DNA of 64,000 nt from Eledone cirrhosa (GCA_964016885.1 OZ024743.1:225680001-225744000), one strand, 5' to 3'. Shown: positions 1 to 63,484, counted from the first letter of the stretch. Numbers and translations: made by a program. Notes: generated from the letters alone by a model not told the origin.

Positions 1-3000
1 AACAAACTGAACAGCCTGAATTTATGCCATACGGTGTTAAGGCAACCACGTCACCTTTTTGTTCAACACTGACACAGGAACGATGTACTAGTTTCAAGCT
101 TGTTAGCTATCATCAGCACCGTTTACCCATCTGCCAGATAGTTGAACGTTCGAAAGTATATACTTTCCTTATGAAAATTAACGGCTGAACAGCCTAATTT
201 GCATATTGAGTGAGTTAAATCGGTCAGGCATACCGAAAACGATAAATTGAAACAAAATGAAAACAAAATTTCATTTCTCACTCTTAGTATGGCACTTACT
301 TAAATGTAAGTATGCATGTATACGTACATACATATATGTATACAGACGTACAGTAGCATGCACATATATATATATATATACATATATATATACATATGCA
401 TACAGGTACACATACATATATGCACGTATCAGTTTAGCGGCGCTAACGTCGCTTTGTTCGTTTGTAAACAAACTGAACAGCCTGAATTTATGCCATACGG
501 TGTTAAGGCAACCACGTCACCTTTTTGTTCAACACTGACACAGGAACGATGTACTAGTTTCAAGCTTGTTAGCTATCATCAGCACCGTTTACCCATCTGC
601 CAGATAGTTGAACGTTCGAAAGTATATACTTTCCTTATGAAAATTAACGGCTGAGCAGCCTAATTTGCATATTGAGTGAGTTAAATCGGTCAGGCATACC
701 GAAAACGATAAATTGAAACAAAATGAAAACAAAATTTCATTTCTCACTCTTAGTATGGCACTTACTTAAATGTAAGTATGCATGTATACGTACATACATA
801 TATGTATACAGACGTACAGTAGCATGCACATATATATATATATATACATATATATATACATATGCATACAGGTACACATACATATATGCACGTATCAGTT
901 TAGCGGCGCTAACGTCGCTTTGTTCGTTTGTAAACAAACTGAACAGCCTGAATTTATGCCATACGGCAGATGGGTAAACGGTGCTGATGATAGCTAACAA
1001 GCTTGAAACTAGTACATCGTTCCTGTGTCAGTGTTGAACAAAAAGGTGACGTGGTTGCCTTAACACCGTATGGCATAAATTCAGGCTGTTCAGTTTGTTT
1101 ACAAACGAACAAAGCGACGTTAGCGCCGCTAAACTGATACGTGCATATATGTATGTGTACCTGTATGCATATGTATATATATATGTATATATATATATAT
1201 ATGTGCATGCTACTGTACGTCTGTATACATATATGTATGTACGTATACATGCATACTTACATTTAAGTAAGTGCCATACTAAGAGTGAGAAATGAAATTT
1301 TGTTTTCATTTTGTTTCAATTTATCGTTTTCGGTATGCCTGACCGATTTAACTCACTCAATATGCAAATTAGGCTGCTCAGCCGTTAATTTTCATAAGGA
1401 AAGTATATACTTTCGAACGTTCAACTATCTGGCAGATGGGTAAACGGTGCTGATGATAGCTAACAAGCTTGAAACTAGTACATCGTTCCTGTGTCAGTGT
1501 TGAACAAAAAGGTGACGTGGTTGCCTTAACACCGTATGGCATAAATTCAGGCTGTTCAGTTTGTTTACAAACGAACAAAGCGACGTTAGCGCCGCTAAAC
1601 TGATACGTGCATATATGTATGTGTACCTGTATGCATATGTATATATATATGTATATATATATATATATGTGCATGCTACTGTACGTCTGTATACATATAT
1701 GTATGTACGTATACATGCATACTTACATTTAAGTAAGTGCCATACTAAGAGTGAGAAATGAAATTTTGTTTTCATTTTGTTTCAATTTATCGTTTTCGGT
1801 ATGCCTGACCGATTTAACTCACTCAATATGCAAATTAGGCTGCTCAGCCGTTAATTTTCATAAGGAAAGTATATACTTTCGAACGTTCAACTATCTGGCA
1901 GATGGGTAAACGGTGCTGATGATAGCTAACAAGCTTGAAACTAGTACATCGTTCCTGTGTCAGTGTTGAACAAAAAGGTGACGTGGTTGCCTTAACACCG
2001 TATGGCATAAATTCAGGCTGTTCAGTTTGTTTACAAACGAACAAAGCGACGTTAGCGCCGCTAAACTGATACGTGCATATATGTATGTGTACCTGTATGC
2101 ATATGTATATATATATGTATATATATATATATATGTGCATGCTACTGTACGTCTGTATACATATATGTATGTACGTATACATGCATACTTACATTTAAGT
2201 AAGTGCCATACTAAGAGTGAGAAATGAAATTTTGTTTTCATTTTGTTTCAATTTATCGTTTTCGGTATGCCTGACCGATTTAACTCACTCAATATGCAAA
2301 TTAGGCTGCTCAGCCGTTAATTTTCATAAGGAAAGTATATACTTTCGAACGTTCAACTATCTGGCAGATGGGTAAACGGTGCTGATGATAGCTAACAAGC
2401 TTGAAACTAGTACATCGTTCCTGTGTCAGTGTTGAACAAAAAGGTGACGTGGTTGCCTTAACACCGTATGGCATAAATTCAGGCTGTTCAGTTTGTTTAC
2501 AAACGAACAAAGCGACGTTAGCGCCGCTAAACTGATACGTGCATATATGTATGTGTACCTGTATGCATATGTATATATATATGTATATATATATATATAT
2601 GTGCATGATACTGTACGTCTGTATACATATATGTATGTACGTATACATGCATACTTACATTTAAGTAAGTGCCATACTAAGAGTGAGAAATGAAATTTTG
2701 TTTTCATTTTGTTTCAATTTATCGTTTTCGGTATGCCTGACCGATTTAACTCACTCAATATGCAAATTAGGCTGCTCAGCCGTTAATTTTCATAAGGAAA
2801 GTATATACTTTCGAACGTTCAACTATCTGGCAGATGGGTAAACGGTGCTGATGATAGCTAACAAGCTTGAAACTAGTACATCGTTCCTGTGTCAGTGTTG
2901 AACAAAAAGGTGACGTGGTTGCCTTAACACCGTATGGCATAAATTCAGGCTGTTCAGTTTGTTTACAAACGAACAAAGCGACGTTAGCGCCGCTAAACTG

Positions 3001-3127
3001 ATACGTGCATATATGTATGTGTACCTGTATGCATATGTATATATATATGTATATATATATATATATGTGCATGCTACTGTACGTCTGTATACATATATGT
3101 ATGTACGTATACATGCATACTTACATT

Positions 3128-3128
<1 letters not shown>
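1..3128. repeat. Tandem array of a 466-bp hammerhead-containing unit (retrozyme/PLE pLTR-like) with one internal inversion at ~966
   Basis: Period 466 (AACAAACTGA at 1, 467, 933; CAGATGGG at 967, 1433, 1899, 2365, 2831). 1-966 is the reverse complement of the units in 967-3128. The right end runs into (TA)n. Only two variants seen (189, 2608). The left arm runs off the window edge. Confidence 0.97.
977..1021 (+). ncRNA. Type I hammerhead ribozyme (also 1443-1487, 1909-1953, 2375-2419, 2841-2885 on +; 79-123 and 545-589 on -)
   Basis: AACGGTG-CTGATGA-T-AGCT-AACA-AGCT-T-GAAA-CTAG-TA^-CATCGTT. 7-bp stem I, 4-bp stem II, palindromic minimal stem III (ACTAGT). Predicted cleavage GUA after 1014. 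Confidence 0.9.
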
Positions 3129-3178
<50 letters not shown>

Positions 3179-3184
<6 letters not shown>

Positions 3185-3345
3185 AAGTTTGTCCTTCATC
3201 AGTGGTCTTCCAACCGTCATAGGCATTTCATCGCTTTAAAGACCATATTTTAAAGCGATGAAATGCCTAGGACGGTTGGAAGACCACTGATGAAGGACAA
3301 ACTTTTTCATATGTAACCCATTTGCAACGCCGCAGCTCCATTATT

Positions 3346-3349
<4 letters not shown>
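3179..3349. mobile_element. Fold-back insert in (TA)n (inverted arms plus ~39-nt tail), PLE-terminus-like
   Basis: 3179-3240 is the reverse complement of ~3249-3310 with 1 mismatch, followed by a unique tail. (TA)n on both sides. Contains CTGATGA but no complete HHR. Confidence 0.75.
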
Positions 3350-3387
<38 letters not shown>

Positions 3388-3391
<4 letters not shown>

Positions 3392-3595
3392 AACAAGTAG
3401 GACCCCGACGACTGAGCTCAAGCCGTTTCGACGGCTAATTCTGGACTAAATCATTTAGTCCAGAATTAGCTGTCGAAACGGCTTGAGCTCAACCGTCTGG
3501 GTCCTACTTGTTCCTATTACCCACTCTACTACCCTAAGTATTGAGTACTTTGGTGCGTTATGGTCCATCTGGTTCCTTACCACATTTCCTTCGTT
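3388..3595. mobile_element. Fold-back insert in (TA)n, family A (3' half of HHR plus ~80-nt tail)
   Basis: TAGGAACAAG...CTAAAT/C/ATTTAG...CTTGTTCCTA then a tail ending CCTTCGTT-(TA)n. Homologous to 7643-7829 and 16963-17303. Confidence 0.85.
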
Positions 3596-3623
3596 ATATA
3601 TATATATATACATACATATATAT

Positions 3624-7642: not shown

Positions 7643-7646
<4 letters not shown>

Positions 7647-7829
7647 AAAAGAGGTCAGGACCCCCCCCCCCTATAGCTGAGCTCCGACCGTTTCGACAGC
7701 TATTTTTGAACTGTTCAGAAATAGCTGTGGAAACGGCCGGAGCTCAGCCGTCGGGTCCTGGCTATTTTCCTATTACCCACTCTGGTGCGTTATGGTCCAC
7801 CTGGTTCCTTACCACAATTCCTTCGTTTT
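7643..7829. mobile_element. Fold-back insert in (TA)n, family A (diverged)
   Basis: Same start (TAGGAA) and end (CCTTCGTT) as 3388-3595. Arms fold at ~7711. (TA)n on both sides. Confidence 0.8.
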
Positions 7830-16962: not shown

Positions 16963-16966
<4 letters not shown>

Positions 16967-17300
16967 AACCAGTAAGACCCCGACAGCTGAGCTCAAGCCG
17001 TTTCGACGGCTAATTCTGGACTAAATGAAAATTTATCCTGGTATTTAAATAGCCGATCTTCTCAAGGGGTAATTCCATATATGGTCAAAGTGATTGTCAA
17101 AAATCAGTAGTAATTCTGTGGTTGCAAATTAGTAGGGGAGATGGTGGCTAAACCTGCCAGTAGGAGAAAGAAGGGAGGGGGTGGAGTAGACCCAATCAGC
17201 TGTCGGGGTCTTACTGGTTCCTATTACCCACTCTACTACCTCAAGTATTGAGTACTTTGGTGCGTTATGGTCCACCTGGTTCCCTACCACATTTCCTTCG

Positions 17301-17303
<3 letters not shown>
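16963..17303. mobile_element. Fold-back insert in (TA)n, family A, longest copy with a complete HHR
   Basis: Left arm 16963-~17196 inverted, short right arm ~17197-17223, tail to 17303. Confidence 0.85.
16977..17070 (-). ncRNA. Type I hammerhead ribozyme, U3-A8 variant with long stem II loop
   Basis: Minus strand: ACCCC-TTGAGAA-GA(T)CGGCTA..loop..TAGCCGTC-GAAA-CGGCT TGAGCTC AGCTG-TC^-GGGGT. Confidence 0.8.
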
Positions 17304-17338
<35 letters not shown>

Positions 17339-17340
<2 letters not shown>

Positions 17341-17839
17341 TAAGGTTTGTTGGTTCCCCACTGGATAGAACTGGTCATTCCGTATGGTCAATCCTGGTGT
17401 AATATTGTGAAAAGTACTCAACGCAGTGCAGTTCACCCATCTTCGTTTGTGTAGTTGGTGGTCCGAATACGGAGTTAATTATAAATGAAGTAACAGGAGG
17501 CTGGACTGGTGTAAATCCTTGAAAGGTTTATTATACTATGATCATTTCAATGACCGGGTTCCGTATGAATCCGGTCATATCATCAGGTATTGGAATATAA
17601 CAAAGGAATATGTAAAAAGAATTTGAGGGCGGCTGGCTGTGAGCTAGTTGGTCAGCCGCCTTCTCTGTCTCTGGTTTCTCGGACCCATGGTTTTTCGGAC
17701 CCATGGCTTTTTACATATTCCTTTGTTATATTCCAATACCTGATGATATCACCGGATTCATATGGAACCCGGTCATTGAAATGATCATAGTATAATAAAC
17801 CTTTCAAGGATTTACACCAGTCCAGCCTCCTCTTACTTC

Positions 17840-17843
<4 letters not shown>
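17339..17843. mobile_element. Fold-back insert in (TA)n, family B, two HHRs
   Basis: ~17481-17619 is inverted relative to ~17707-17843. ~140-nt tail on the left. (TA)n on both sides. Confidence 0.85.
17736..17793 (+). ncRNA. Type I hammerhead ribozyme (second copy 17533-17590 on -)
   Basis: ATAC-CTGATGA-T-AT(C/G)ACCGG..CCGGTCAT-T-GAAA-TGATCA-TA^-GTAT. Palindromic stem III, U.U opening of stem II. Confidence 0.85.
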
Positions 17844-17878
<35 letters not shown>

Positions 17879-20084: not shown

Positions 20085-21453
20085 CTTTCTTTATTAACCA
20101 CAAGGTTTACATAAAGTAGACATTAAGGACAGTACAGGACGGTACAAATGGGCATTTCTGCGTGTAAAAAAAACAAAAACAGAGGATGTAACAAAAAATA
20201 ACAATGAAAAATTCCCCAATAGGGGGGAGACTTCCGAGGGACATTTGTGGAGATAGCCCATTAAAAGCCACAGTGACCCTGACCACCAGGGCAAGTGCCC
20301 TCTCCCAGTTTTCCACCTTTAATTTACAGACACATACTCATAGTAGGCCCATTCACTCGGGCCATACTTGCTTCTCTCACCCATCTTTCAACAAAATGCT
20401 TGGAAGAGAGCACTTGCCTCTCTACCCTGATTTTCCTTTTCAAATGAAATTTGAAAAAGTTAATCAGGGCATCACCGAAGAGGTAAGTGCCCGTCTTTCA
20501 GCACTTTCAAACGTGTCCACCATACTATCTCTTTCGCCATGGCAACCAGACAGATAAAAACTGCCTGCCCTTCCCGGCTAAAGGAAGAGGGCGGGAGAAT
20601 CCTCACGATGGTCTCAGCTGATAGCTGGATCCGTCCTACACGTAACAGCAGGTGTTCGACATAAACCCACAAGTCAGCAATGCTCGGACACTGGACGAGT
20701 GCGTGCAGGACGGTTTCGTCGTCCTGCGCGCATCTCGGACATGCCCGGCTGACGGCATCTCCATGCCTGTAGAGTTTATCCCGAACTGGCAAAGCTCCTC
20801 GGTAGCACTGCCAGGCCAGGGATTTCTGGAAGTTGTCCATACGCCCCGGCCCGAAAGTTCTTCCGAAGAGATTGGCTAGTTGATTTTCGTCGACGCCTAG
20901 AGTTTCTCCAAGTACGTCGTCGCTCTTCCCCTCCACTAATCCTCTATAGAACGCCATGGTGGAGTTTCCAGTGGAGTTCATTTTGGTTGACCTCATTTCG
21001 ATATCACGAGTTAATTTATTTTTTTCTTTTGTTTCTGTTGTCGCTGTGGTTGTGGTGGGGGTGGCGGCTTTAACACCTGCAGTCATTGGTAATGGCGGGA
21101 AATGAATGTTTGCCTGAGACAAATTTAAAATATTGCTACTGCTTATATTTTTAGTGTTGGCAAACGTAGTATCATTTACAATGGTGGTGTCGGTGTGAGG
21201 TGTTAGTTTGTGAGGAAGGTGTAACTCTGAGTCGTCCATGATTTTTCAAAGAAAAACTTTTGTTTGATAATTATAAAAGTTTAAATTTTGGGCTCAAGGC
21301 CCCAATCTTTTTGGGTGTCCTTTTCAGATAACAATGTATGTGCACTTATATACAGTTAACAATAAAAATTTTCCATAAATGGCAATTTTAAACAACTGAA
21401 AATAACAAACCTTTGCGGAGCTCACGATGATACGATTTACTACGTAGGTCGCC

Positions 21454-21455
<2 letters not shown>
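20085..21455 (-). mobile_element. Internally deleted Tx1/L1 element (5' UTR and ORF1-like start fused to ORF2 C-terminus)
   Basis: ORF 20472..21239 has a Thr/Asn-rich N-terminus, then MDNFQKSLAWQCYRGALPVRDKL...CPRC..ETVLHALVQC. 3' end TGTGG..AATAAAGAAAG. (TTA)n context. Confidence 0.75.
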
Positions 21456-21489
<34 letters not shown>

Positions 21490-21584
21490 TGTTTCTATTT
21501 TAGGCACAAGGCCAGCAATTACCTAGTACATTACTGGTACTTTATTTTATCGACCCCGTAAGGATGAAAGGCAAAATAATGATT

Positions 21585-24031
21585 TCATTTATTGGCCACA
21601 AGGGTAGACATGCAGGGTGCAATACAAAAACACAGACAGTGGGGGCGGGGAGGAGGGGTTTACAGTAAGGTTAGTAAAAGTGCACAATGGCAAGACTTAT
21701 TTAACAATGAAGATATAAAAATATAAAATAATCTATGTATAAATATAACAAAATAAATTCCCCTGTAGTGGGTGACTCAGGTACCCCACCAATCCTGAAC
21801 CACCCTGCGCTTCTAGGGCACCCAGGGAGAGCATCCCTCTCCTCAAATTAGCTAGCCTATAGGCGCATGGCCATTCTCCCCACATTCATCCACCTTTTAG
21901 CAAATGTACTTGGAGGGGGGGGGGGCACTTCTCTCTCCACCTTCACCTTCCTTTCCAGGTGAAACTTGAAGAAGTTGATGAGGGATTGGCCGAAGAGAAA
22001 AGTGTCTGTCTTCAGTCCTTTCAATCTGGTCCATCATATAACCCCTTTCGCAACTGCCACCAGACAGAGGAAAATTGCCTGCTCTTCCTGGCCAAAGGAA
22101 GGCGGCGGGTCGATCTTCACTATGGACTCGGCCGATAGCCGGATCTGTTCTACACACGCGACAGTAGCTGTTCGACATAACTCCACAAGTCAGTAATGCA
22201 CGGGCATCGGACAGCGCGTGCAGAACGGTTTCATCGCTCTGTGCGCATAGAGTTTATCCCGAACCGATAGTGCCCCCCCCCCCCCCCGGTATCACTGCCA
22301 TTCGAAGGATTTCTGGAAATTGTCCATCGTCCCCGGCTCGAAAGTCCTCCGGAACAGACTGGCAGTTCGACTTCGTCGAGGCCCAAAGCTTCTCCGAGTG
22401 CGTCATCGCACTTTCCCACCACTAATCCTCTATAGAACTCGAGAGTGGAAGTTCCACTGATCGCATTGTCCGCTTGGTAGAGGACAGTGAGTGCCTGGCA
22501 ACATTCCAGTCATCCAGTCTTGGTCTCTTCTTGACCCAGGACTGCAGCTCAGTCAAAGAAACGAGCTGCGGAAAGGCCTGTCTGATAAACGGTGACCACA
22601 CCTGTTCACCGTTTAGGCAGAATATCTGGAGATGTCGCAGCTTCAGAGCATGTCTGCGCATCATTAGCCACGGCATGCCCAGCCCTCCACGTAGAGGGTG
22701 TTGGCAACAGATGGACCGCCTGACCAACGGAATTATCCTCTCCACAAGAATTTGAAGTGGAGCCGTTCCAAATTGGCGAAGCGCAGATGGCGGCAAGGCA
22801 CGACGGTCAGGCGGTAGTAGATGACGGACGCGATGTACGCATTCGCCACCTTCGCGCGATCTTTTATTGATAGCTTCCTCGCAGCCCATTTTTGGGTGAG
22901 ACTGGCTACCTTGCTCGTTACCTCGTTCCAATTCTCTTCCACCTGGAGGTCTGGTCCGAACCAATAAGGTGCCGACCACCTCAATTTCTGAGGGGTCCGA
23001 CACCATTACGGTGATGTCGTCCGCATAAGCCAACACAGCCTTTCCACGTCCCGGTTCGAGTGGGATGCTCTGCGACAGCTCCAGCTTCCGCAGTAAAGGC
23101 TCGAGAGTCAATCCGTACAAAAGGGAAGAGAGAGGGCACTCTTGACGGACCGATCGGGAGAGCCGAAACAGTTCCGAGAGGTGGCCATTAACCTTGACCA
23201 CCGAGCAGGTGCCGCTGTGCATTGCAGCGACCCAGATTCTGAAGACAAGGCCAAAGCCAGCTGCTTTGAGGACAGCCTCCGATGGTTGACCCTATCGAAT
23301 GCTTTCGATTGATCTAAATTGATCAGTGTCCCACCGAAGCCAGGTTTACACCCTACCCTCTCTATGATGTATCGCATGTGGTGGAGGTTGTCGTGTATGG
23401 ACCTGGCTGGAATTGCGCAAGTCTGCGCCTCCCCAACAAAATCCTCGACGACAAGCGCCAATCTCTTTGCTAACACCTTGGCCAAAATCTTAAACTCTGT
23501 GTTGAGCAGAGTTATGGGCCTGAAGTTGTCTAATGTATCCCTCTTGTTCTCGTCTTTCCTTATCAGCGTCACCACTCCCCTGCTCACAGAACTGGGGATA
23601 CTCCCATTCTGCTGCCAGTTGCAGTAGGCCGCTTCGAGGAGGTCGGAGAACAAGTCTGGCATATTTACGTAAAGCTCGTAGGGCAAGCCATCCAAACCGG
23701 GTGATTTGAGCCTCATGCAGCCGACAAGGGCGTCCTGAATTTCGGCTGAAGTAATCGGCCTTTCGCAGTGCTCATCGTCGACCGTCGAGATACGCGGCAA
23801 GCCGTCAAGGTAGGGACTGACATCCGCTACTGTCTCTGACCCGCCACTCTCCCCGAACAACCGAGCAAAGTGCTAGCGAAAAGCCTCACACATCCGCTTG
23901 GAATCGCTTATCTCGTGTCCGTCTCGGTCCGGCAAAGACCGAATTGTGGTTTTATTACCACGCTGCGCCTCCGCCACGCGGGCCCATCGAACAGCTTTGG
24001 CTCTTTCGTTTCTCGGCGCACGCGCTTTAGC

Positions 24032-24033
<2 letters not shown>
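21585..24033 (-). mobile_element. 5'-truncated Tx1/L1 LINE, degenerate ORF2 (RT)
   Basis: KSPGLDGLP, NFRPITLLN, LDQSKAFDRV, SVRQECPLS, AYADD; several frameshifts. Confidence 0.92.
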
Positions 24034-24091
<58 letters not shown>

Positions 24092-24228
24092 ACCTGTAGA
24101 GCAAATATATATTATATATATATAAATATATAAAACATCTATTTTGTGTTTATATATTATGTATATCTGTATACATGCATGTGTGTATGAGTATGTATAT
24201 ATATGCATTCATGTATGTATGTATGTAT

Positions 24229-25431
24229 GTCAGATATCGCACTTCCGGCAACTGTTTAACCTTAGGCGTCTCTCTCTGCCAACACTAAGATACTGAGTAC
24301 CTTGATCAGAGAATTTATATATGCAGATGATTGTGATCTCTTTGCACACCTCCAGAGTGACATGCAACACTTTATGGATTCTATTTCCAATGCGTTCAGT
24401 GCTTTGGGACTGACAATCAGTTTGAAGAAAACTGTCGTCATGTACCAACCTGCTCCGGATAGAGTTTTCAATGAACCCTCCATATACGTATACGGTCAAA
24501 AGCTGAAGGTTGCTGACACTTTTGTGTATTTGGGGAGTACTCTGAGTGTGGCATGCTCTCTGGATGCAGAAGTTGGTCTACGTGTTAGTAAGGCAAGTGA
24601 GTCATTTGGAAGGCTCAACGACCGTCTTTGAATCACAATGAGGACCAAGGTGAGAGTGTATGCTGCATGTGTACTGTCAGCTTTGCTGTATGCATGTGAG
24701 ACATGGGTTGCCTACAAACGGCATATCCACAGACTGGAACAGTTTCACCAGCAGTGTCTCAGAAAGATACTCGGTATCAAGTGGCAGATGCATGTGAGTG
24801 ATGTTGAGGTCCTTGAGAGAAGTGAGTGTCGGAGCATTGAGCGTATCATCCACCAACGGCGTTTGCGAGGGACCGGACACCTCTGTAGAATGGAGGATGA
24901 TCGAATCCCAAAACAACTCTTGTATGGCGAGCTCTGATTCAAGGATTGTATAAAGGACTCATTGAAAAAAAACTGGTTTGATGATGGCTGACTGGGAGAT
25001 AGAAGCTCTTGAAAGAAAAATTAGGCGTGGAATGGTGAATGATGGGGTCCATAATTTTGAGGACAGACGCATAGAGCACGAGAAGATCAAACGCGATGTG
25101 CGTAACCATGCCCTGGTGTATCTCTCGAAACGATCGGTGTCTCCATTGAATTGAAATGCCCTGAGTGTGGAAAAATTTGCTTGAGCAAATCTGGTCTCAG
25201 GAGGCACGTTCGCAGCCATGTTCAAAGAGAACCAGTGAACTATGATCTCCATGGTGTTGTGATGGTTCACAGGCAACCTGATGCAGGACCTCAAGCCAGG
25301 GAGATCCATAGTTTTCGTCAGTGTGTGAAGGAGTGCAAGTCTCTAGCAGGCGTGAAAAGCCATATCCGAGCGTCACACATCTGAATCTGACAAGCGATTG
25401 CAATACTCTTGGCAGAGTTTGCAGCCATCAT
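24229..25431 (+). mobile_element. 5'-truncated RTE-clade LINE
   Basis: IREFIYADDC, GLTISLKKT, FVYLGS, LLYACETW, RIPKQLLYGEL and C2H2-like fingers (CPECGKICLSKSGLRRH), with stops. (TATG)n on both sides. Confidence 0.92.
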
Positions 25432-35300: not shown

Positions 35301-36488
35301 CTAAGTATTCTATAAGTCTCTAGCTGTGTCATTCTCGATAAAAGCACTGGATATGTAGTCCTGATGATTTCTAACAAGAATGAAACGCGTAGATTACTTC
35401 CCTTGCTTTTATCGAGAATATAATTGTAATACGTGACGTATTCTATTCTATAGCGATTAGGTCTTCAAAATGTTTATTATAAACATACAGAATATTTTCG
35501 AATATTCTATGTCTATATTCACATATATATCGCTATTTCAGAGCATTTATTCCAATTTCTAATTTCTGCCGGACCGGCAACCGCTCTTTCAAACCAGTTC
35601 CTGTACACAGCTAAGTATTCTATAAGTCTCTAGCTGTGTCATTCTCGATAAAAGCACTGGATATGTAGTCCTGATGATTTCTAACAAGAATGAAACGCGT
35701 AGATTACTTCCCTTGCTTTTATCGAGAATATAATTGTAATACGTGACGTATTCTATTCTATAGCGATTAGGTCTTCAAAATGTTTATTATAAACATACAG
35801 AATATTTTCGAATATTCTATGTCTATATTCACATATATATCGCTATTTCAGAGCATTTATTCCAATTTCTAATTTCTGCCGGACCGGCAACCGCTCTTTC
35901 AAACCAGTTCCTGTACACAGCTAAGTATTCTATAAGTCTCTAGCTGTGTCATTCTCGATAAAAGCACTGGATATGTAGTCCTGATGATTTCTAACAAGAA
36001 TGAAACGCGTAGATTACTTCCCTTGCTTTTATCGAGAATATAATTGTAATACGTGACGTATTCTATTCTATAGCGATTAGGTCTTCAAAATGTTTATTAT
36101 AAACATACAGAATATTTTCGAATATTCTATGTCTATATTCACATATATATCGCTATTTCAGAGCATTTATTCCAATTTCTAATTTCTGCCGGACCGGCAA
36201 CCGCTCTTTCAAACCAGTTCCTGTACACAGCTAAGTATTCTATAAGTCTCTAGCTGTGTCATTCTCGATAAAAGCACTGGATATGTAGTCCTGATGATTT
36301 CTAACAAGAATGAAACGCGTAGATTACTTCCCTTGCTTTTATCGAGAATATAATTGTAATACGTGACGTATTCTATTCTATAGCGATTAGGTCTTCAAAA
36401 TGTTTATTATAAACATACAGAATATTTTCGAATATTCTATGTCTATATTCACATATATATCGCTATTTCAGAGCATTTATTCCAATTT
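29322..36488. repeat. Tandem array of a 310-bp hammerhead-containing unit inserted in (TA)n, ~4.1 inverted plus 19 direct units
   Basis: TGAATATAGA at 29331, 29641, 29951, 30261, 30571. Inversion at ~30596-30598 (AAT microhomology). CTAATTTCTG at 30601+310n. Only a substitution at 32813 and a 2-nt deletion at ~33960 seen. (TA)n on both sides. Confidence 0.98.
30707..30749 (+). ncRNA. Type I hammerhead ribozyme (19 copies on +, 4 on -, first at 29455-29497)
   Basis: GTAGTC-CTGATGA-T-TTCT-AACA-AGAA-T-GAAA-CGCG-TA^-GATTAC. Stem I is extended by ATTCTCGATAAAAGCA/TGCTTTTATCGAGAAT. Confidence 0.9.
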
Positions 36489-36503
36489 ATATATATATAT
36501 ATT

Positions 36504-36577
<74 letters not shown>

Positions 36578-36583
<6 letters not shown>

Positions 36584-37320
36584 TTGGAGCTCTGAAATAG
36601 CAATATATATATGGATGTATATATAATGTATTTTGCAATACACTTTATGCTTAATTAAAAGCATTTTGAAGACCGTAAGCTATTGTTTTAAAGTAGTGAC
36701 AAATTCACTTACTTTGATCTCAGCAAACAGGGGAGATAAGCCGACAAGGCCCTGTTTCGCTTTGGTTGAAGCTTATCAAGGCTAACTACCCCTCCTGTCT
36801 ACCGAGATCACTGATGTTATAGACAGAAGGGGTAGTTAGCCTTGATAAGCTTCAACCAAAGCGAAACAGGGCCTTGTCGGCTTATCTCCCCTTTTTGCTG
36901 TGATCAAAGTAAGTGAATTTGTCACTACTTTAAAACAATAGCTTACGGTCTTTAAAATGCTTTTAATTAAGCATAAAGTGTATTGCAAAATACATTATAT
37001 ATACATCCATATATATATTGCTATTTCAGAGCTCCAATTCTAATTTTTAATTTCTGCCTGACCAACAACCGCTCTGCATAATCAGCTCCTGATTATTTAC
37101 TAGATTTCTATAAGAATATAACATCAGTGATCTCGGTAGACAGGAGGGGTAGTTAGCCTTGATAAGCTTCAACCAAAGCGAAACAGGGCCTTGTCGGCTT
37201 ATCTCCCCTGTTTGCTGAGATCAAAGTAAGTGAATTTGTCACTACTTTAAAACAATAGCTTACGGTCTTCAAAATGCTTTTAATTAAGTATAAAATGTAT
37301 TGCAAAATACATTATATATA
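36578..37320. mobile_element. Fold-back partial-tandem insert (~317-bp unit) related to the 310-bp family, three HHRs
   Basis: 36578-36821 inverted, then ~1.6 direct units (CTTGATAAGC at 36841 and 37158). Shares GCTATTTCAGAGC, TCCAATT and AATTTCTGCC.GACC..CAACCGCTCT with the 310-bp unit. (TA)n flanks. Confidence 0.88.
36828..36892 (+). ncRNA. Type I hammerhead ribozyme, U3-A8 variant (also 37145-37209 on + and ~36729-36793 on -)
   Basis: AGGGG..AGCC-TTGATAA-GCTT-CAACCA-AAGC-GAAA-CAGGGCCTTG-TC^-GGCT..CCCCT. Confidence 0.85.
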
Positions 37321-37679
37321 CATATATATATATATATATACAGTGGCGGACGGGCCAGGTTGCCAGGTTGCCCAATGGCAAGTGTGGGCCCCAGGACCCA
37401 TGGTAGCATTGCAAGAGACACAGTAGCATTGCAGGGCCTACTGTAGTATTTTAGGGGCCAATGCTTTGCTTTGCTTTCAAAAAATACCTGAAATCTAAGT
37501 GAAAGAATAAAACATTTGGTCAACCAATTCCCCAGGGAATTACTAGAAACCAAAATATACGATGGGGCAAATAGCTGGAATCAGTGGTTGTAAATTCTAC
37601 TAAATCTAAAGCGTAGTGTATTCATTCACGCATGCAAACATACATATATAGACACAGACACACAAGCATATATATATAT

Positions 37680-37900
<221 letters not shown>

Positions 37901-39072: not shown

Positions 39073-39127
39073 AATATGGTTTTATAAATATAGTTTCCAT
39101 TCGTTAATATATTGTATATATATATAT

Positions 39128-39750
39128 AGTGTTATGCTTTGGGAGGGTCATGTTGCCAATAAGAAACACACGCACCAGTTGCTTTCACTTCAATTTATTA
39201 TAAATTAAATTTATAAATTTAGGAATTTATAAATTTCCGGTTGGTTGGTTGGTTCCACAACCAGGCGATTGTTCATATATTGTCAAAGTTCTTTCGTCAC
39301 ACATTCTGTGACCTCTTCAGTGACTGGGGATTCTTTTCTTTGTTTTTTGTGCCTCTCCTTTGTTCTGTCCTACGCCATCTTGTTTTTGTGTGCTTAGTTT
39401 GCGCATGTGTTACATCCGGGTGTCTGAGTGTGTTTATAAATTTATTTATTTGTTTATATACATGATACTGGTTGGTTGTTTGTTCTATCTGTGTGTGTGT
39501 TTTCATTTTGTCCTTAATTGTAAGCTGTGATGTTGCTGTTCCGTTCATGTTTTCTATTTAATTTTGGTTGGAGTTCATTTACGTTTATTGCCTCTGTGAT
39601 TTGTCTAAACATTGCGTCTTTTCTGTGTGTAGATTCTATTTTTATTTCTATGTTCTCTAATTTACCCTTATGTTCTATTTTAGCATGTTGGTGGACTACA
39701 GATGATTCTTTACTATCTTGAGGCTCTCGCCAGTGTTCATTTATTAATAA
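39128..39750 (-). mobile_element. PLE 3' end: GIY-YIG C-terminus (39514-~39750) plus pLTR
   Basis: NEH...SSVVHQHAKIEH...IEIKIESTHRKDAMFRQITEAINVNELQPKLNRKHE resembles the PLE endonuclease C-terminus. HHR-like motif downstream. Lies in (TA)n. Confidence 0.8.
39283..39324 (-). ncRNA. Minimal hammerhead-like motif in the PLE pLTR
   Basis: Minus strand: GTCA-CTGAAGA-G-GTCAC..GTGAC-GAAA-GAAC-TT^-TGAC. Stem III is weak. Confidence 0.65.
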
Positions 39751-39816
39751 ATGAATACCAAATATTATTTGGTCAGTAGTCCGTGTAATTATATACATAT
39801 ACATATATATATATAT

Positions 39817-39895
<79 letters not shown>

Positions 39896-39897
<2 letters not shown>

Positions 39898-40512
39898 AGA
39901 GTATTGAAGTTTGCTTGAAGCATTGTGGAACAATAAGTAAATATCTTTAAGTCGTTTGGAAGCTTCGACAATGCAAATGGGTAAATCTCCGGGTAACAAG
40001 GTCCGATGGTCCGATGGTGGAGAGAGAGATGTAAGTGGGTGTACGTTGAGATGCGTGGTGTGTATAAGATGTGTGAGATGTGTAGAATGAAGGGATGAGT
40101 ATAAAGGATAAAATTAAGAATAACAACACAAGAGAGAGTTACCTTGGGAGAGATTTAATAGTTCCTATATATTTCGGATTCACATCCATCAACTGGGTTT
40201 TTTTTTCCGGGGTGGGGGAAAAGGTTGTCTGTCGGATTGTCCGACAGACAACCTTTTCCCCCACCCCGGAAAAAAACCCCAGTTGATGGATGTGAATGCG
40301 AAATATATAGGGACTATTACATCTCTCCCAAGGTAACTCTCTCTCGTGTTGTTATTTTATTTTACCCTTTATACTCTTTCCTTCATTCTTCCACACATCT
40401 CATACACACCACGCATCTCAACGTACACCCACTTACATCTTTCTCTCCCCCACCGGACCTTGTTACCCGGAGATTTACCCATTTGCATTGTCGAGGCTTC
40501 CAAACGACTTAA

Positions 40513-40514
<2 letters not shown>
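39896..40514. mobile_element. Fold-back insert in (TA)n (~290-bp arms, 3-nt loop, ~45-nt left tail)
   Basis: ~39941-40236 is the approximate reverse complement of 40240-40514, with several differences. Confidence 0.85.
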
Positions 40515-41400
<886 letters not shown>

Positions 41401-41511
41401 ATAATTACACGGACTACTGACCAAATATTATTTGGTATCAATGGGTTAAAGACATCTGTCAAATCAATTAGTGGTGAAGGTATAGATATATAGATACACA
41501 CACACACAGAT

Positions 41512-42499: not shown

Positions 42500-42711
42500 A
42501 AAGTCTCTGAAATTCGCAAAATACATAATATTTTTTATTGGAGAAGGTAAGATATTTTTCCGCAAAAATTTGATTGTACTGTTTTATTTCCACTTATGTA
42601 ATTTTCGAAAATGTTATATATTCATTATAAAAATTAAATGATAGCATTCTATATGTAGGTGGGCCCCTTCTTCATTTCCTGGCAACCAATATTTTTAGAT
42701 CCAGTCCGCCA

Positions 42712-42775
<64 letters not shown>

Positions 42776-42811
42776 TGGCGGACTGGATCTATATATATAT
42801 ATATATGTGCG

Positions 42812-42874
<63 letters not shown>

Positions 42875-43043
42875 GGTAAACAAAAATAACAAAACAAACA
42901 ATGGGCTTCTATAGAATTTCTGTCAAACCAAATTTCACTCAACTCATAAATATTCTCTTTTTCACTGATTTAGCAAGAAGTATAAATCTCTTCCCCCGGC
43001 TTTTTTTCTGAGATTTCCTGTATAGATCAACCGACTGTCCAAA

Positions 43044-44876
43044 ATGTTGGTATCAATGTTGGTATCAATGTTGGTATCAATGTTGGTATCAATGTTGGTA
43101 TCAATGTTGGTATCAATGTTGGTATCAATGTTGGTATCAATGTTGGTAATCAATGTTGGTATCAATGTTGGTATCAATGTTGGTATCAATGTTGGTATCA
43201 ATGTTGGTATCAATGTTGGTAATCAATGTTGGTATCAATGTTGGTATCAATGTTGGTATCAATGTTGGTAATCAATGTTGGTATCAATGTTGGTATCAAT
43301 GTTGGTATCAATGTTGGTATCAATGTTGGTAATCAATGTTGGTATCAATGTTGGTATCAATGTTGGTATCAATGTTGGTATCAATGTTGGTAATCAATGT
43401 TGGTATCAATGTTGGTATCAATGTTGGTATCAATGTTGGTATCAATGTTGGTAATCAATGTTGGTATCAATGTTGGTATCAATGTTGGTATCAATGTTGG
43501 TATCAATGTTGGTAATCAATGTTGGTATCAATGTTGGTAATCAATGTTGGTATCAATGTTGGTATCAATGTTGGTATCAATGTTGGTATCAATGTTGGTA
43601 TCAATGTTGGTATCAATGTTGGTATCAATGTTGGTAATCAATGTTGGTATCAATGTTGGTATCAATGTTGGTAATCAATGTTGGTATCAATGTTGGTATC
43701 AATGTTGGTATCAATGTTGGTATCAATGTTGGAATCAATGTTGGTATCAATGTTTGTAATCAATGTTGGTATCAATGTTGGTAATCAATGTTGGTATCAA
43801 TGTTGGTATCAATGTTGGTATCAATGTTGGTATCAATGTTGGTATCAATGTTGGTATCAATGTTGGTATCAATATTGGTATCAATGTTGGTATCAATGTT
43901 GGTATCAATGTTGGTAATCAATGTTGGTATCAATGTTGGTATCAATGTTGGTATCAATGTTGGTATCAATGTTGGTATCAATGTTGGTAATCAATGTTGG
44001 TATCAATGTTGGTATCAATGTTGGTATCAATGTTGGTATCAATGTTGGTAATCAATGTTGGTATCAATGTTGGTATCAATGTTGGTATCAATGTTGGTAT
44101 CAATGTTGGTAATCAATGTTGGTATCAATGTTGGTATCAATGTTGGTATCAATGTTGGTATCAATGTTGGTAATCAATGTTGGTATCAATGTTGGTATCA
44201 ATGTTGGTATCAATGTTGGTATCAATGTTGGTAATCAATGTTGGTATCAATGTTGGTATCAATGTTGGTATCAATGTTGGTATCAATGTTGGTAATCAAT
44301 GTTGGTATCAATGTTGGTATCAATGTTGGTATCAATGTTGGTAATCAATGTTGGTATCAATGTTGGTATCAATGTTGGTAATCAATGTTGGTATCAATGT
44401 TGGTATCAATGTTGGTATCAATGTTGGTATCAATGTTGGTATCAATGTTGGTATCAATGTTGGTATCAATGTTGGTATCAATGTTGGTAATCAATGTTGG
44501 TATCAATGTTGGTATCAATGTTGGTAATCAATGTTGGTATCAATGTTGGTATCAATGTTGGTATCAATGTTGGTATCAATGTTGGTATCAATGTTGTTAT
44601 CAATGTTGGTAATCAATGTTGGTATCAATGTTGGTATCAATGTAGGTATCAATGTTGGTATCAATGTTGGTAATCAATGTTGGTATCAATGTTGGTATCA
44701 ATGTTGGTATCAATGTTGGTATCAATGTTGGTATCAATGTTGGTATCAATGTTGGTATCAATGTTGGTAATCAATGTTGGTATCAATGTTGGTATCAATG
44801 TTGGTATCAATGTTGGTATCAATGTTGGTATCAATGTTGGTATCAATGTTGGTAATCAATGTTGGTATCAATGTTG
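43044..44876. repeat. 12-bp minisatellite (ATGTTGGTATCA)n with a 13-bp variant forming a frequent 61-bp higher-order unit
   Basis: Read directly; the GGTAATCA variant often recurs every 5 monomers. Confidence 0.97.
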
Positions 44877-45125
44877 AAACAAAGTCTATTATGTTATTTG
44901 ATATCACGAGGGTTCTCGAGAGGGAAAGAACATTTTAATTCTCAATGTGAATTTAGCTCAAAGTTCGGCAGTATATTGTTTTTATTCCTGCCCATTGTAT
45001 CACAGCGTGTAAGTCAGACAGAAGGCCTATCCGGTTTAATACTCCGTTTATTACTTTCTGAAGTTTAGTCATCTGAATTTTAAAATTTTATTGTTTGATG
45101 ACGTCTGTGAGGTAATTTATATAAA

Positions 45126-45618
45126 TAACGATTTCTACGATAGGCACAAGGCCAGCCATTTGAGGAGAGGGGAAAGTTGATTAAATCGACCCCAGTGCGT
45201 TATTGGTGCTTTATTCTATCGACCCTTTAAGGATGAAAGGCAAAGCTCAGAACGTCATTATATAAATAATGATTTCTACAATAGGCACAAGGCCAATAAT
45301 TTGGGGGGAGGGTAAAGTCGATTAAATCGACCCCAGTACGTTACTGGTGCTTTATTCTATCGACCCTTTAAGGATGAAAGGCAAAGCTATCCTCGGCGGG
45401 ATTCGAACTCAGAACGTCATTTATATAAATAATTGTTTCTACTTTAGGCACAAGACCAGCAATTAACCAGTACATTACTGGTACTTTATTTTATCGACCC
45501 CGTAAGGATGAAAGGCAAAGTAAACCTCGGCGGGATTTGAACTCAGACCGTAAAGGGACGTAACTATGCTGGAAAGCATGGCGTCCGACTCTCTACCGAT
45601 ACTGCCAATCCACCGCCC
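45126..45618 (-). mobile_element. Three tandem SINE family 1 copies, the last full-length
   Basis: Head GGCGGTGGATTGGCAGTATCGGTAGAG and B-box GAGTTCAAATCCC on the minus strand. Confidence 0.85.
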
Positions 45619-57316: not shown

Positions 57317-60300
57317 GGAATGAACACATGTGTTAAACTTGCTCGGTAAGTTTTGTTTAAATTTCTTTAGAAATTCGTCATTGTGAACTTTTATTTTTAT
57401 ACCAATTTGTAGAGGGACTGACAGGTCAAATTTTGATCTGGTCAGTCTCCCAAAATATCGTGCCCCATCTAACATATTTTTGCAAAACACTTCAATTTTT
57501 TAAAATGGCCGAAGCAAAGGCACCTACTCAATACAAGAAAATGAGAAGGGAAAGCCATGCTTACTTGACCAGCAGTAGCAGACATGGACAAAGGAATGCC
57601 AACATTATCGCCTCAACATTTAGAAGAGGCCATGCTTCAGTTGCTTACAAGCAACTGATGCATGTTCCTCTTCTAAAGGCGAGTTCAGTTGCTTACAAGC
57701 AACTGAACTCGCCTGACGTCACAAACACCACATGTATCCACACACAGAAGGAAGTGTAGCAAATACTAACACCACAACAAGCAACAACAACAACACAATA
57801 AATGAGAACAACAACAATACAACAAAAGGAATCAGCAGCAACACAACGAATGAGACCATCATCACCACCACCAACAACAACAATAACAAAATTTCATTTG
57901 CAGCAGCCGTTGCTAAGCAACAGGATTTTAAATATTACCCTATGGATATTTCCCAAAAGTCCCAATATTTGGAAGAAGCTTCCAGCTATGAGACGTTTGA
58001 GGGAGACACCCCACATATACACATACCCCCACAAGTAAGAGAGATGACACAGAAAAAGAAACTAATCTATAGATCAGTTGACAGCGTTAACAAAAAACCC
58101 ATAACGCTCCCAACAAGCACTATCGAAGCTGCACTAAAAGATATCAAGCCAGACGTGGCATACCTCCAAAGAGCTAAACAGTATGGAAGTGTGTCAATGC
58201 TCTTTAAGAGCGAAACTCTGGCTCAAAAACACTCGGTTCACCCAATAAAAACGGATCAACACATCTTCTTTCCCACATACATGGGAAGAAGATCATATAA
58301 AATAAAAATAACCAGGATCCCAGCAGAGGTCAACATATGGTGGATCCTACGCTGCATCCTGAAGAAGGATGAGGACCCCCCCCTATCTGTAGATAGGACA
58401 GACCGGAATAACTGGTTTGGAGCCTGCTTCGAGGTTCGGGTACAAATGAGCTAGAGAGAGTTGAGAAAATCCCGGACAAGATCGTTCTTGAGGAAGATGT
58501 CATCTCCATTTTAGTGGAGGGGAAAAGACCTCAGTGCCATAAGTATGGGAAAACTACACACTTAAAGGCCTTTTGCCCTCTATTAAACAAACTGAGGACA
58601 AACAAGGTGTTATTACCAACACCAAAACCCCAACATCAACACCTCAAACCAAACACAACACAAAAATCTGCAACATCCCCTCCCACACCACCACAGACCA
58701 GACACGACCACACAAAATCCCACTGAAAAACCCTCCATTGGCTCCTCCCTCCCTGTCAAATACTTTCATAAACACCTGCACAAACACTCCACCACACAAA
58801 ATACCCCTCCCATCTACCCCTGATTCAGAAGTCTCAGATACGGGAACCTCTACATCTCCAAGTGAGAATGAAGAGGAACCCAAAAAATCCAAAAAACAAA
58901 AAAGAGACAAAAAAAACAAAACACAAAAACAAAAACATCTACAGAAAACACGCACACACACAACCCCACAATAAACACACCGCCACAAACGACAAACACA
59001 CGAACAACACAATCACCACCAACACAACCAAACACTTCACCAACAAAACAAACACCCACACCACCACAATCACAAACTCCAACCACAAAAAGAAAACTAC
59101 AAACAGGAACAGCACACATAAAAAAACAAAACACATTACACATACATAAAAACAACAAACAAAGAATTGATAGACACTGTCCAGAAGGACCCTACTATCC
59201 AAACGGAAAGGAGAACCTTCCCCACTAACGACCCACCCCCAAACCTCAAACTGATCAGGGTAACAACCCTACAACATGAAACATTGAAAGGGACCTTCCC
59301 ACATGATGTGGGCCCCCTTGCCAAAAAACCCTTAATCGTGTCCTGCTAAAAGGATTCCCTCCCTCCCCAAACACCCCCAATCTGGACATGGAGATCGAAC
59401 AACCCGACCTCCAGGAAACGAAAAGGTAAGTGTTCCTGCCTTTTCTCTCCCTAACTCTTCTTCACCAACATGGCGACTATACAAGTTGGATGTTTGAATG
59501 TACGTGGCCTGGGCATGCCCTGGAAACAGGGCCAGCTTTTAAATGATCTCAGGTCACATTGTATAGATGTGATAGCCATAACCGAGTCCAGGATTCACGA
59601 CAGGCAGCAGCTAACCCTCATGTTCGATGACTTTGAGATCTACGCATCTCTCTGTCAGCCAGGAGGTGGAGGGGGAGTTGCTGTTCTGTTTCGAAAAAAT
59701 TTGGATCTCAAAGCACAAACGATTCACTTGGACCCAGAGGGCAGCTTGGTGGTCCTGGACGTGAATGGTAGTGAAGGTGGAGCTTTCAGACTGGTGGCCG
59801 TATATGCCCCGACTGGGACATCGCGACCAGAGTTCTTCAAGCGTCTGGAGCCATTCCTGGGAACGTCTCGCTCCTTAGTGTTAGCGGGGGACTGGAATGG
59901 CATCTTAGATGCACGTTGGGACTATGTAGGAGCTTGTGATAATAGAGGGGAGGGGGGGGGGGGGTGTAATAGCCTCACAAATCTCATCAGCCAATTCCAA
60001 CTGGCTGATAGATATCGACTAGACTTCCCAAGTGCACCATCGATACTTGGAAGCGGTTCTCAAGGTGGCCGGTTTCGGTCCCGTTTTCAGAGGCTGGATC
60101 GAGGCGATGCACACCAGCATTTGCTCGAGGGTTAATGTGAACGGCTACCTATCGGAGCCGTTCGCAATCACGCGTTCCAGTCGACAGGGATGCAATCTCT
60201 CCTCCATTCTGTATGTATTGACTCTAGAGCCACTACTGCGGAAATTGGAGCTGTTGCAGGGCATCCCTCTAGAACCGGGACTGCGTAAAGCGGCGTCGGC

Positions 60301-61905
60301 TTATGCCGACGACGTGGCGGTAATGGTGTCGAGCACCTCGGAAATCGGGGTGATCGGCAACTTACTGAAAGAATACGAAACGCTGACGGGAGCAAAACTA
60401 AACCCGGAGAAGTCTGTCGGTTTGCAACTCTGTACATGGAGAGGCAAACCGATGACGTCCGACAGCGTCGTTTGACGCTGGACGGACGGACCAGTGAAAT
60501 TGCTCGGGGTCTGGTTCGGTCCAGACCTCCAGGTGGAGAAAAACTGAAACGAGGTCACGGCCAAGGTGTTTGCGCTCACCCAGAAGTGGGCAGAGTGCAA
60601 ACTGTCCTTGAAAGGTCGAGCGGAGGTGGCGAACACTTTCATAGCGTCCGTCATCTACTATCGCTTGAATGTCGTGCCTTGTCCCCGTGAACACCTACCC
60701 AAGATGGAACGCATGCTCTTCCAGTTTCTGTGGAAGAAGCAGGCTCCGCTGGTGAGGAGATCCGTCTACTGTAAGCACCCTTCCAACGGAGGGTGGGAAT
60801 GCTGTGGCTGATGCTGCGCAAACATGCGCTGAGGCTGCGGCATCTTCAGGTATTCCTCACCAACCCCCAACCGGTTTGGGAACCGTTTGTGAAACAGGCC
60901 TTCCCGCAGCTCGTCTCGCTTACGGAGCTGCAGTCCTGGGTCAAGAAAAGACCGAAAACGATGGGCGCCTGGCACATTGAATGAGCCCAGGCGCTCACAG
61001 TCCTCTGGCAAGCGGGCACAGCAATCAGTGGAGACTCCACTTCGACATTCTATAGAGGGATTGTACGTTACAAGGGCGACGGCATGCTCGAAGAGACTCT
61101 GGGCGTCGAAGACCATGAGATCACCAGTCTGTTTGGTAGGACTTTCCGCCCGGGACCTATGGACAACTTCCAGAGGTCCCTGGCCTGGCACTGCTACCGA
61201 GGAGCTCTACCAGTTCGTGACAAGATCTACAGGCACGGACGCCCCGGCAGGGATCCTTCCAAGAGGTCGTGTCCAAGATGCGTGCAGGACATTGAAACCG
61301 TCCTGCACGCAATTGTACATTGCCCGGGCGTAACCGACATGTGGAACTACGCGGAACAAGTGCTGTCGCGTATGGGACAAATCCAGTTGACTGCCGAGTC
61401 CATAGTAAGGATCAAACCGCCAACTTCTTTCAAAAACGAAAGAGAGGCGGTTTTCCTCTGTATAGTGGCTATGGTGAAAGAGGTTATATGGTGGACGAGA
61501 TTGAGAGGACTGAGGACAGATGCCTTTCTCTCCGGACAACAATTCATTCCCTTCTTTAGATATCACTTTAGAAGGAGAATCAGAATGGAGAGAGAAGCAC
61601 TGCACCCCAGTAAATTTATTGAAAGGTGAGTGAATGAAGCGAAAATGACCCGAGTGATTGGGCCTTCGCTGTATATAAACCTGTAGGTTAAAGAAGAGAA
61701 CAAAAGCAAGAAGGCACCACTTGCACAACACGCTCCTGGAGTTGAGGGTGTAAAACAACTCATTTGTGGCGCCTCCCCCCTATTGGGGATTTCGATTGAT
61801 ATATTTGTTTGTTTCAATATTTTTTTACATGACTGTATGTAAAATCCCCGGCATGTCTTTGTATTGTCCACTTTTCTTGTGCGCCCTTGTGGCAAATAAA
61901 GAAAT
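57316..61905 (+). mobile_element. Near full-length degenerate Tx1/L1 LINE in (TATC)n
   Basis: ORF1 remnant 57732-~58730 (CHKYGKTTHLKAFC knuckle). APE from 59470 (LNVRGL, ITES, VYAP, AGDWN), RT (AYADD at ~60300) and C-terminal CPRC..H..C. (ATCT)n at both ends. Confidence 0.93.
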
Positions 61906-61945
61906 ATATCTATCTATCTATCTATCTGTCTGTCTATCTATCTAT

Positions 61946-63178: not shown

Positions 63179-63217
<39 letters not shown>

Positions 63218-63461
63218 GTAAGCTATCGTCGTATTTTGACTAAAGAAATTAAAGAAATTATTTAGCCTGATAGTGGGGTTAAGAACCCTCGGAGAAATGG
63301 AAAAAGATGAGTATTGTCAATAATCATTTTTTTCCATTTCTCCGAGGGTTCTTAACCCCACTATCAGGCTAAATAATTTCTTTAATTTCTTTAGTCAAAA
63401 TACGACGATAGCTTACATTTATCATAACTTCAAACCCACTCGCTGTTTCGAAAATATTCTT
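63218..63461. mobile_element. Fold-back insert (family C), ~95-bp arms plus ~45-nt tail
   Basis: 63218-63310 is the reverse complement of ~63322-63416. Flanked by (TA)n and (CA)n(TA)n. Confidence 0.8.
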
Positions 63462-63484
63462 ACACACACACACACACACACACC

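Follow-up and report, generated by a model that had tools for sequence, protein, structure and literature searches.

Non-LTR retrozymes are defined by tandem, low-GC, non-coding units that carry a type I hammerhead ribozyme (PMC7229834; 10.64898/2026.07.22.740005). The canonical metazoan type I motif includes: (i) a conserved core, (ii) a helix I of ~6 bp and a helix II of ~4 bp, and (iii) a helix III of 1-2 bp with a small palindromic loop, and is thought to cleave as a dimer; a U3-A8 variant of the hammerhead is already described (PMC4209133). Active hammerheads are carried by the W-elements of schistosomes (PMC8490949). A 2020 proposal derives tandem cDNA from a circle, with Penelope-like elements (PLEs) as candidates (PMC7229834), and a 2026 preprint draws a PLE link from co-occurrence and terminal-repeat homology and proposes local amplification (10.64898/2026.07.22.740005). 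The questions addressed here are which retroelement moves animal retrozymes, and whether the arrays are made at insertion or grown later.

Insertions of endonuclease-bearing (EN+) PLEs include partial tandem copies, with a 5'-truncated copy inverted at the 5' end and a tail of 30-40 bp at one end (PMC8557442), and the commonest inverted arrangement is head-to-head (PMC3846280). Targets of the (TA)n type are described for Naiad, while the microsatellite bias of Neptune is attributed to its zinc-finger linker (PMC8557442). In vitro, both strands of AT-rich DNA are cut and extended by a purified PLE enzyme, which begins at two neighboring internal positions that mark the limits of the tail (PMC11167929). 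Hammerhead cleavage is dispensable to the anole PLE, the main substrate of which is unprocessed RNA (PMC11167929). Non-autonomous Chlamys PLEs with multicopy insertions are already described (PMC8557442), and activity of MRC1 is reported (PMC9940879).

The 466-bp repeat examined here lies at the left edge of the window (the whole stretch of Eledone cirrhosa DNA that was analysed, 64,000 nucleotides in length; GCA_964016885.1 OZ024743.1:225680001-225744000) and is very probably a non-LTR retrozyme, a known class. A tandem-repeat scan finds two arrays of period 466, at 1-966 (2.1 copies) and 965-3129 (4.6 copies), both 99% matched. With unit numbering set to begin at window position 965, the right arm (965-3129, plus strand) consists of 4.65 copies, with a substitution at 2608 and an exact match up to 3129, and terminates at unit position 301, which is 251 nt 3' of the predicted ribozyme cut. 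The left arm (1-966, minus strand) reads as the unit in reverse complement, with its 5' end at unit position 102 and a substitution at 189; it includes at least 2.07 copies, being cut by the window edge with its 3' end beyond. The arms meet head-to-head at 965-966, where a 2-bp GG common to both is the whole of the overlap, and neither arm continues past it. A (TA)n tract at 3130-3180, the presumed target, borders the right end of the array as well as the next inverted insert; since TA is common to arm and tract, the end of the right arm may be placed at 3128 or 3129. The initial annotation had described a second hammerhead array with one ribozyme per 466-bp unit, near-zero divergence, a single head-to-head inversion on GG microhomology and an end in (TA)n, and each of these points holds, the last at the right end: five plus-strand and two minus-strand ribozyme cores are present, and the array has two substitutions (189 and 2608) in 3,129 bp.

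The unit has a GC content of 0.36 (36%). No stop-to-stop frame of at least 120 aa occurs within 1-3129, and no LTR pair is evident in repeat scans of the array. Classification of the array as a MITE is rejected, as the two arms are tandem arrays that are inverted over their whole length and adjoin directly, instead of a unique core flanked by short terminal inverted repeats and a target duplication. An autonomous PLE is likewise rejected, as the array is without a reverse transcriptase (RT) and GIY-YIG frame, and the repeat is classed as a passenger.

The seven hammerhead cores of the array are at 984, 1450, 1916, 2382 and 2848 on the plus strand and at 582 and 116 on the minus strand. The corresponding motifs of the right arm span 977-1021 (copy 1, type I, predicted cut after 1014), 1443-1487 (copy 2, predicted cut after 1480), 1909-1953 (copy 3), 2375-2419 (copy 4) and 2841-2885 (copy 5), and those of the left arm span 545-589 and 79-123 on the minus strand. 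Each ribozyme is composed of a 7-bp helix I, a CUGAUGA core, a U.U plus a 4-bp helix II with an AACA loop, a GAAA, and a helix III of 2 bp inside a self-complementary hexamer; folding extends helix I past an internal loop. Helices of 7, 4 and 2 bp with a self-complementary hexamer agree with the canonical metazoan type I hammerhead. The motif appears in none of 5,000 dinucleotide-shuffled 466-bp units under either descriptor used, strict or relaxed. None of the Rfam families attains its gathering score in the array, the sole hammerhead match being HH9 (E 0.46; 18.5 bits vs a cut-off of 52); matches of miRNA type reflect hairpins and are rejected.

Compared to the ribozyme of a neighboring array of 310-bp units (the 310-mer), the 466 ribozyme has two-sided pair changes at 4 of 6 pairs in helix I and 2 of 4 in helix II, as well as in the helix III palindrome, with all helices kept. 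In a seven-row alignment 11 of 14 pairs have two-sided changes, and as five of its seven rows were hand-picked from 75 metagenome loci, mostly for pairing, only the comparison of the 466 and 310 ribozymes is unbiased. The active hammerhead fold lies 2.2 kcal/mol above the local energy minimum, and the inner three pairs of helix I have folding probabilities of 0.18-0.28. The predicted folding is permissive of self-cleavage rather than favorable to it. Among predicted retrozyme dimers of Xenopus, only one of nine cleaves in vitro (10.64898/2026.07.22.740005). The predicted cut-to-cut monomer (1015-1480, plus strand; 466 nt) is a candidate circular RNA and includes a long TA-rich hairpin at about 1137-1258. 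Its folding z-scores (-8.4 linear and -7.9 circular) were obtained with this hairpin unmasked and are probably inflated by it.

Outside the ribozyme, the 466-bp unit and the 310-mer were initially said to have no obvious similarity, and this is borne out: the score of the comparison is reached by 39 of 500 shuffles and is not significant, and that of the segment 1266-1400 is reached in 280 of 1,000 shuffles, though a weak colinear resemblance of the two units is seen. The 310 array has arms of 4.12 and 19.0 copies that overlap by 3 bp, with (TA)n on both sides. Its ends are at unit positions 287 and 315, which are 139 and 167 nt past the cut, leaving a 28-nt tail. A third tandem hammerhead insert (36577-37335, head-to-head) is built of 0.74 and 1.65 copies of a 317-bp unit that is homologous to the 310-mer (none of 500 shuffles reaches the score). 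It ends 131 and 166 nt past its cut, with a 38-nt tail that is on the left arm, opposite to that of the 310 array, and its hammerhead is of the U3-A8 core variant with a longer helix III. The 317-bp insert occupies the same (TA)n tract as the 310 array.

Inverted inserts are not confined to these three. Eight of them, the 317-bp insert included, were chosen by eye from repeat listings (18 rows of one), and all eight have one paired end at a (TA)n run, a proportion that reflects a biased choice; 7.9% of the window is in or beside such a run. Two hairpin-shaped inserts (3181-3348 and 3389-3594; overhangs of 36 and 77 nt) share the (TA)n tract of the 466 array. The second is related to inserts at 7645-7829 and 16965-17302, the three having the same short end and overhangs of 77, 55 and 77 nt. 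Another inverted insert (17340-17846), which carries its own hammerhead (core at 17586 on the minus strand, long helix II), lies between (TA)n runs and has an overhang of 142 nt, while those at 39895-40515 and 63212-63463 have overhangs of 48 and about 45 nt. The insert at 63212-63463 terminates in (CA)n, and a diverged relative of it lies near 37700-37800. Overhangs of the eight are thus 36, 38, about 45, 48, 55, 77, 77 and 142 nt; when the 310 array is included, the nine range from 28 to 142 nt and only three fall at 28-38 nt. The short ends of the inserts often sit on internal TA-like words, and inserts cluster in the same tracts (3130-3600, 17302-17338 and 36488-36578).

Five distinct hammerhead motifs are found in the 64-kb window, and each of 20 shuffled windows has no core match. 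The initial annotation had argued from two arrays for a recurring, recently active process. Recurrence is more strongly supported than was argued, by the third insert (36577-37335), the five hammerhead motifs, the inverted inserts at (TA)n and a family that is large in one public run. Of recent activity, the part that stands is the homogeneity of the array (2 substitutions in 3,129 bp), but this dates amplification or homogenization and not necessarily insertion. The recurrent build bears on the very improbable explanation that the array is an assembly or library artefact (a fold-back chimera, or a collapsed or polished repeat) or a one-off satellite rearrangement unrelated to retrotransposition. 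The junction is known from the assembly alone, no listed contig covers even 1200-1612, and copy number and near-identity in tandem arrays are assembler-dependent, and these points speak for an artefact. Against this, unrelated families show the build and re-use end positions (the common short end at 3390, 7645 and 16965), the same inverted build is present in diverged, older inserts and fits the published PLE signature, and the window contains no N.

The architecture of the 466 array matches that published signature, whereas the initial annotation left the process unnamed. As in EN+ PLE insertions, an inverted 5'-truncated copy is joined head-to-head, and a (TA)n target is at the right end. 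Tails near the 30-40 bp of PLEs are seen in the 310 array (28 nt) and the 317-bp insert (38 nt), the left end of the 466 array being beyond the window; a later deletion against the flank could mimic a tail. No homology of the 466-bp unit to a PLE terminal repeat is found beyond the ribozyme core, either in the window or among the 75 metagenome loci. For the left end of the 466 array, we give an even chance to (TA)n at unit position 270, which is 31 nt before the right end and at an internal CATATAT. A site near unit position 358, suggested by the weak resemblance to the long end of the 310-mer, has about half that chance.

Insertion by a PLE is highly probable. The reading we favor, which is likely overall, is that the 466 repeat is a non-coding passenger of an EN+ PLE and that the two-armed array arose from one insertion in which both nicked strands of (TA)n were primed. 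The array would be transcribed, and the hammerheads, acting as dimers through the palindromic helix III, would cut the RNA to 466-nt monomers, which may be ligated to circles. The GIY-YIG endonuclease of the PLE would nick both strands of the (TA)n tract. Reverse transcription would then be primed by each nick and begin at one or other of two fixed internal positions, separated by a few tens of nt, which would give the tail; the enzyme would read through several units of a circular or multimeric template. The two cDNA ends would be joined on 2-3 bp of microhomology to form the head-to-head junction.

The same element and enzyme could instead generate the inversion by fold-back, with a cDNA or antisense template that primes its own copying on 2-3 bp, the resulting copy being resolved at a preferred end site. 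Self-priming is proposed for PLEs from palindromic junctions (PMC3846280), the GG/CC geometry at unit positions 1 and 102 permits it, and in the 317-bp insert the left arm is a mirror image of the first copy on the right arm (36820-37044). However, if fold-back occurred in the nearest register and copying ran to the end, the 310 array should have 18.2 left copies rather than the 4.12 observed, and both strands are cut and extended in vitro (PMC11167929). Early resolution at a preferred site is a possible form of fold-back, which as a whole is unlikely.

In one public run (X1) the 466 family is large and polymorphic, whereas this array is homogeneous. Part of the unit is contained in 20 of 24 listed runs; four of the 24 were mapped against the unit. 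In run X1, 4,592 contigs are matched, with 1,019 at 99% identity or above, 1,638 at 95-99%, 1,740 at 90-95% and 195 below 90%. Ten variant places are noted in X1 from a scan that left out 1200-1256, the stretch with the predicted left-end site, and X1 also has a diverged form whose core differs only at the free seventh position; the lack of a variant place in 1444-1487 is not significant (P 0.26). A uniform array within a mixed family is as expected if each array is made from one template, and recent local homogenization would give the same picture.

Multi-copy arms made at the insertion itself are somewhat favored. An alternative is that a short inverted PLE insert of one to two units was followed by growth of the arms through unequal crossing-over or slippage, with the ribozyme as a terminal-repeat passenger. 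Growth after insertion is the route proposed in the 2026 preprint (10.64898/2026.07.22.740005); the 317-bp insert (0.74 and 1.65 copies) could be such a seed, and recent growth would likewise yield near-identical copies. Yet the two long arrays have several copies on either arm (at least 2.07 and 4.65 copies; 4.12 and 19.0 copies), and therefore each arm would need a separate expansion; moreover, three right-arm variants (2608, 32813 and 33961) are each in one copy and have not spread. Later growth is unlikely, to about the same degree as fold-back.

The 20 runs that contain part of the unit come from 15 studies with many organism labels (at least 15) and include a wastewater metagenome. This spread over labels may be carry-over of a very abundant repeat, which is our guess. 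Horizontal spread is rejected as unsupported: the raw reads of organism F give no match in 1,938 million letters (which is no test in the absence of a control stretch), X2 has no matched contigs (a zero that can be false), X21 and X22, which are from the same sample as X9, one of the 20 runs, contain next to none of the words of the unit, and X4 yields 14 low-depth contigs that show the diverged variant also present in X1. No RNA run is among the listed runs with the unit, which has no bearing on expression.

A strict hammerhead pattern has no metagenome match, while a loose pattern identifies the 75 loci in metagenomes and no match in viral contigs. The majority are members of a single family in a single data set, several are apparently chance matches to coding sequence, and none resembles the 466-bp unit outside the core. 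In one metagenome, L001, L047, L057 and about 45 other loci form an abundant hammerhead family in AT-rich DNA, located mostly at contig ends and sometimes as inverted pairs; these probably represent the termini of a PLE family from an animal or a protist. Two contigs of ~1.1 kb (L006 and L037) have the same hammerhead subtype with direct repeats at both ends (78 and 121 bp) and may be monomers of about 1 kb, tandem or circular, in collapsed form.

A candidate partner of the passenger is preserved as a truncated PLE remnant (39080-39790, minus strand), which comprises a GIY-YIG-like fragment, a stop, a hammerhead at 39320 on the minus strand and a short TA run. About 36 nt of the 5' end of this remnant recur in inverted orientation at about 41404-41436, across a long (TA)n. 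The C-terminal GIY-YIG-like fragment, a 5'-truncated frame at 39517-39786 on the minus strand, has 39 relatives at E ≤ 0.001. Of the 11 relatives scanned, five have PF01541 (GIY-YIG) at E ≤ 0.003, two of them above the curated cut-off, and the four relatives inspected have a cysteine linker before the C-terminal nuclease, which is the layout of Neptune and Nematis. The window fragment itself matches no Pfam family, and a word-index protein search with it gives no match; an Atlas lead for the fragment (0.93) has GIY-YIG in 15% of its members. A metagenome contig (L012) encodes a PLE frame with GIY-YIG (E 7.9e-5) and a CxxxxCxxC linker, followed by a hammerhead of the 466 subtype 190 nt past the stop and, after roughly another 120 nt, by (TA)n. 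L012 is one instance only, in a different organism; its helix I pairs for only 3 bp, and the window fragment does not align with it (E 0.92). Naiads have no hammerheads, and in cephalopods they are said to have been inactive for a long time (PMC8557442). The partner PLE most likely belongs to the Neptune/Nematis type.

The weakest part of the favored model is the circle, and a circular template is judged possible but somewhat short of an even chance; the need for it is weakened by the anole PLE, for which cleavage is dispensable and unprocessed RNA is the main substrate. More tentative still is the full reading that the arrays directly record rolling-circle reverse transcription, in which a dimeric PLE enzyme of the Neptune type copies a self-cleaved circular RNA, with both (TA)n strands priming. 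If true, it would describe a genome with several unrelated viroid-sized circular RNAs that are currently seeding instant satellite arrays, and the inserts would be the first evidence from insertion sites to link animal retrozymes with a PLE clade and a mechanism. In inserts with readable ends and junction, the end positions report the starts of reverse transcription and the arm lengths report the run of the enzyme; as both ends and the junction can be read, the question of mobilization is directly testable. Such inserts are natural templates for the existing in vitro PLE assay and suggest a route to satellites that appear in one step.

Several other features accompany the arrays. The microsatellites of this animal's window are AT-rich, and an inverted-repeat scan of the window is swamped by (TA)n. 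A 12-bp minisatellite of about 150 copies is at 43043-44876, and broken LINE-type frames are at 20475-24628 and 59455-62672 (RVT_1, zf-RVT and Exo_endo_phos in the frames scanned). A dispersed repeat at 45117-45388 may resemble octopus SINEs. At 42689-42798 and from 37340 onward, a common short word flanks (TA)n in inverted orientation, presumably like the ends of a TA-targeting DNA transposon.

Like the metazoan non-LTR retrozymes, the 466-bp unit is tandem and non-coding, with a hammerhead per unit, low GC and no long frame (PMC7229834; 10.64898/2026.07.22.740005). Its length is slightly above the 150-450 bp range quoted in 2020 (PMC7229834) and within the 51-972 bp range of the 2026 preprint (10.64898/2026.07.22.740005). 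The ribozyme shares with axolotl HHR_Amex2 a U.U at the base of helix II and a two-pair helix III, but the loop is of 4 nt in HHR_Amex2 compared to 2 nt here (PMC7229834). Unlike described retrozymes, the 466 array includes a multi-copy arm in inverted orientation and terminates in (TA)n; supplements aside, the main text of PMC7229834 and the text of 10.64898/2026.07.22.740005 make no mention of inverted retrozyme arms. A literature search, with subscription journals mostly outside its reach, found no retrozyme array with inverted arms and (TA)n ends and no cephalopod retrozymes. The hammerhead satellites of newt, schistosome and cave cricket, as well as the W-elements, are similarly tandem repeats with type I hammerheads, but are described as satellites without the ends of a single insertion event (PMC7229834; PMC8490949).

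Chlamys PLEs such as MRC1 are green-algal, mostly without hammerheads, and prefer (CA)n and (C)n, and the non-autonomous members generally resemble their autonomous partner at the 3' end (PMC8557442). The EN+ PLEs of the Neptune and Nematis groups share with the 466 array a head-to-head inverted 5'-truncated copy with a small overlap at the junction, an AT-rich or (TA)n target, a hammerhead upstream of the 3' end and, in the neighboring inserts, a tail (PMC8557442; PMC3846280; PMC11167929). By contrast to these PLEs, the 466 array has no RT/GIY-YIG frame, both of its arms are multi-copy arrays of short units, and no terminal-repeat homology is found. The retrozyme class is itself known; what is added here is the architecture of the 466 array.
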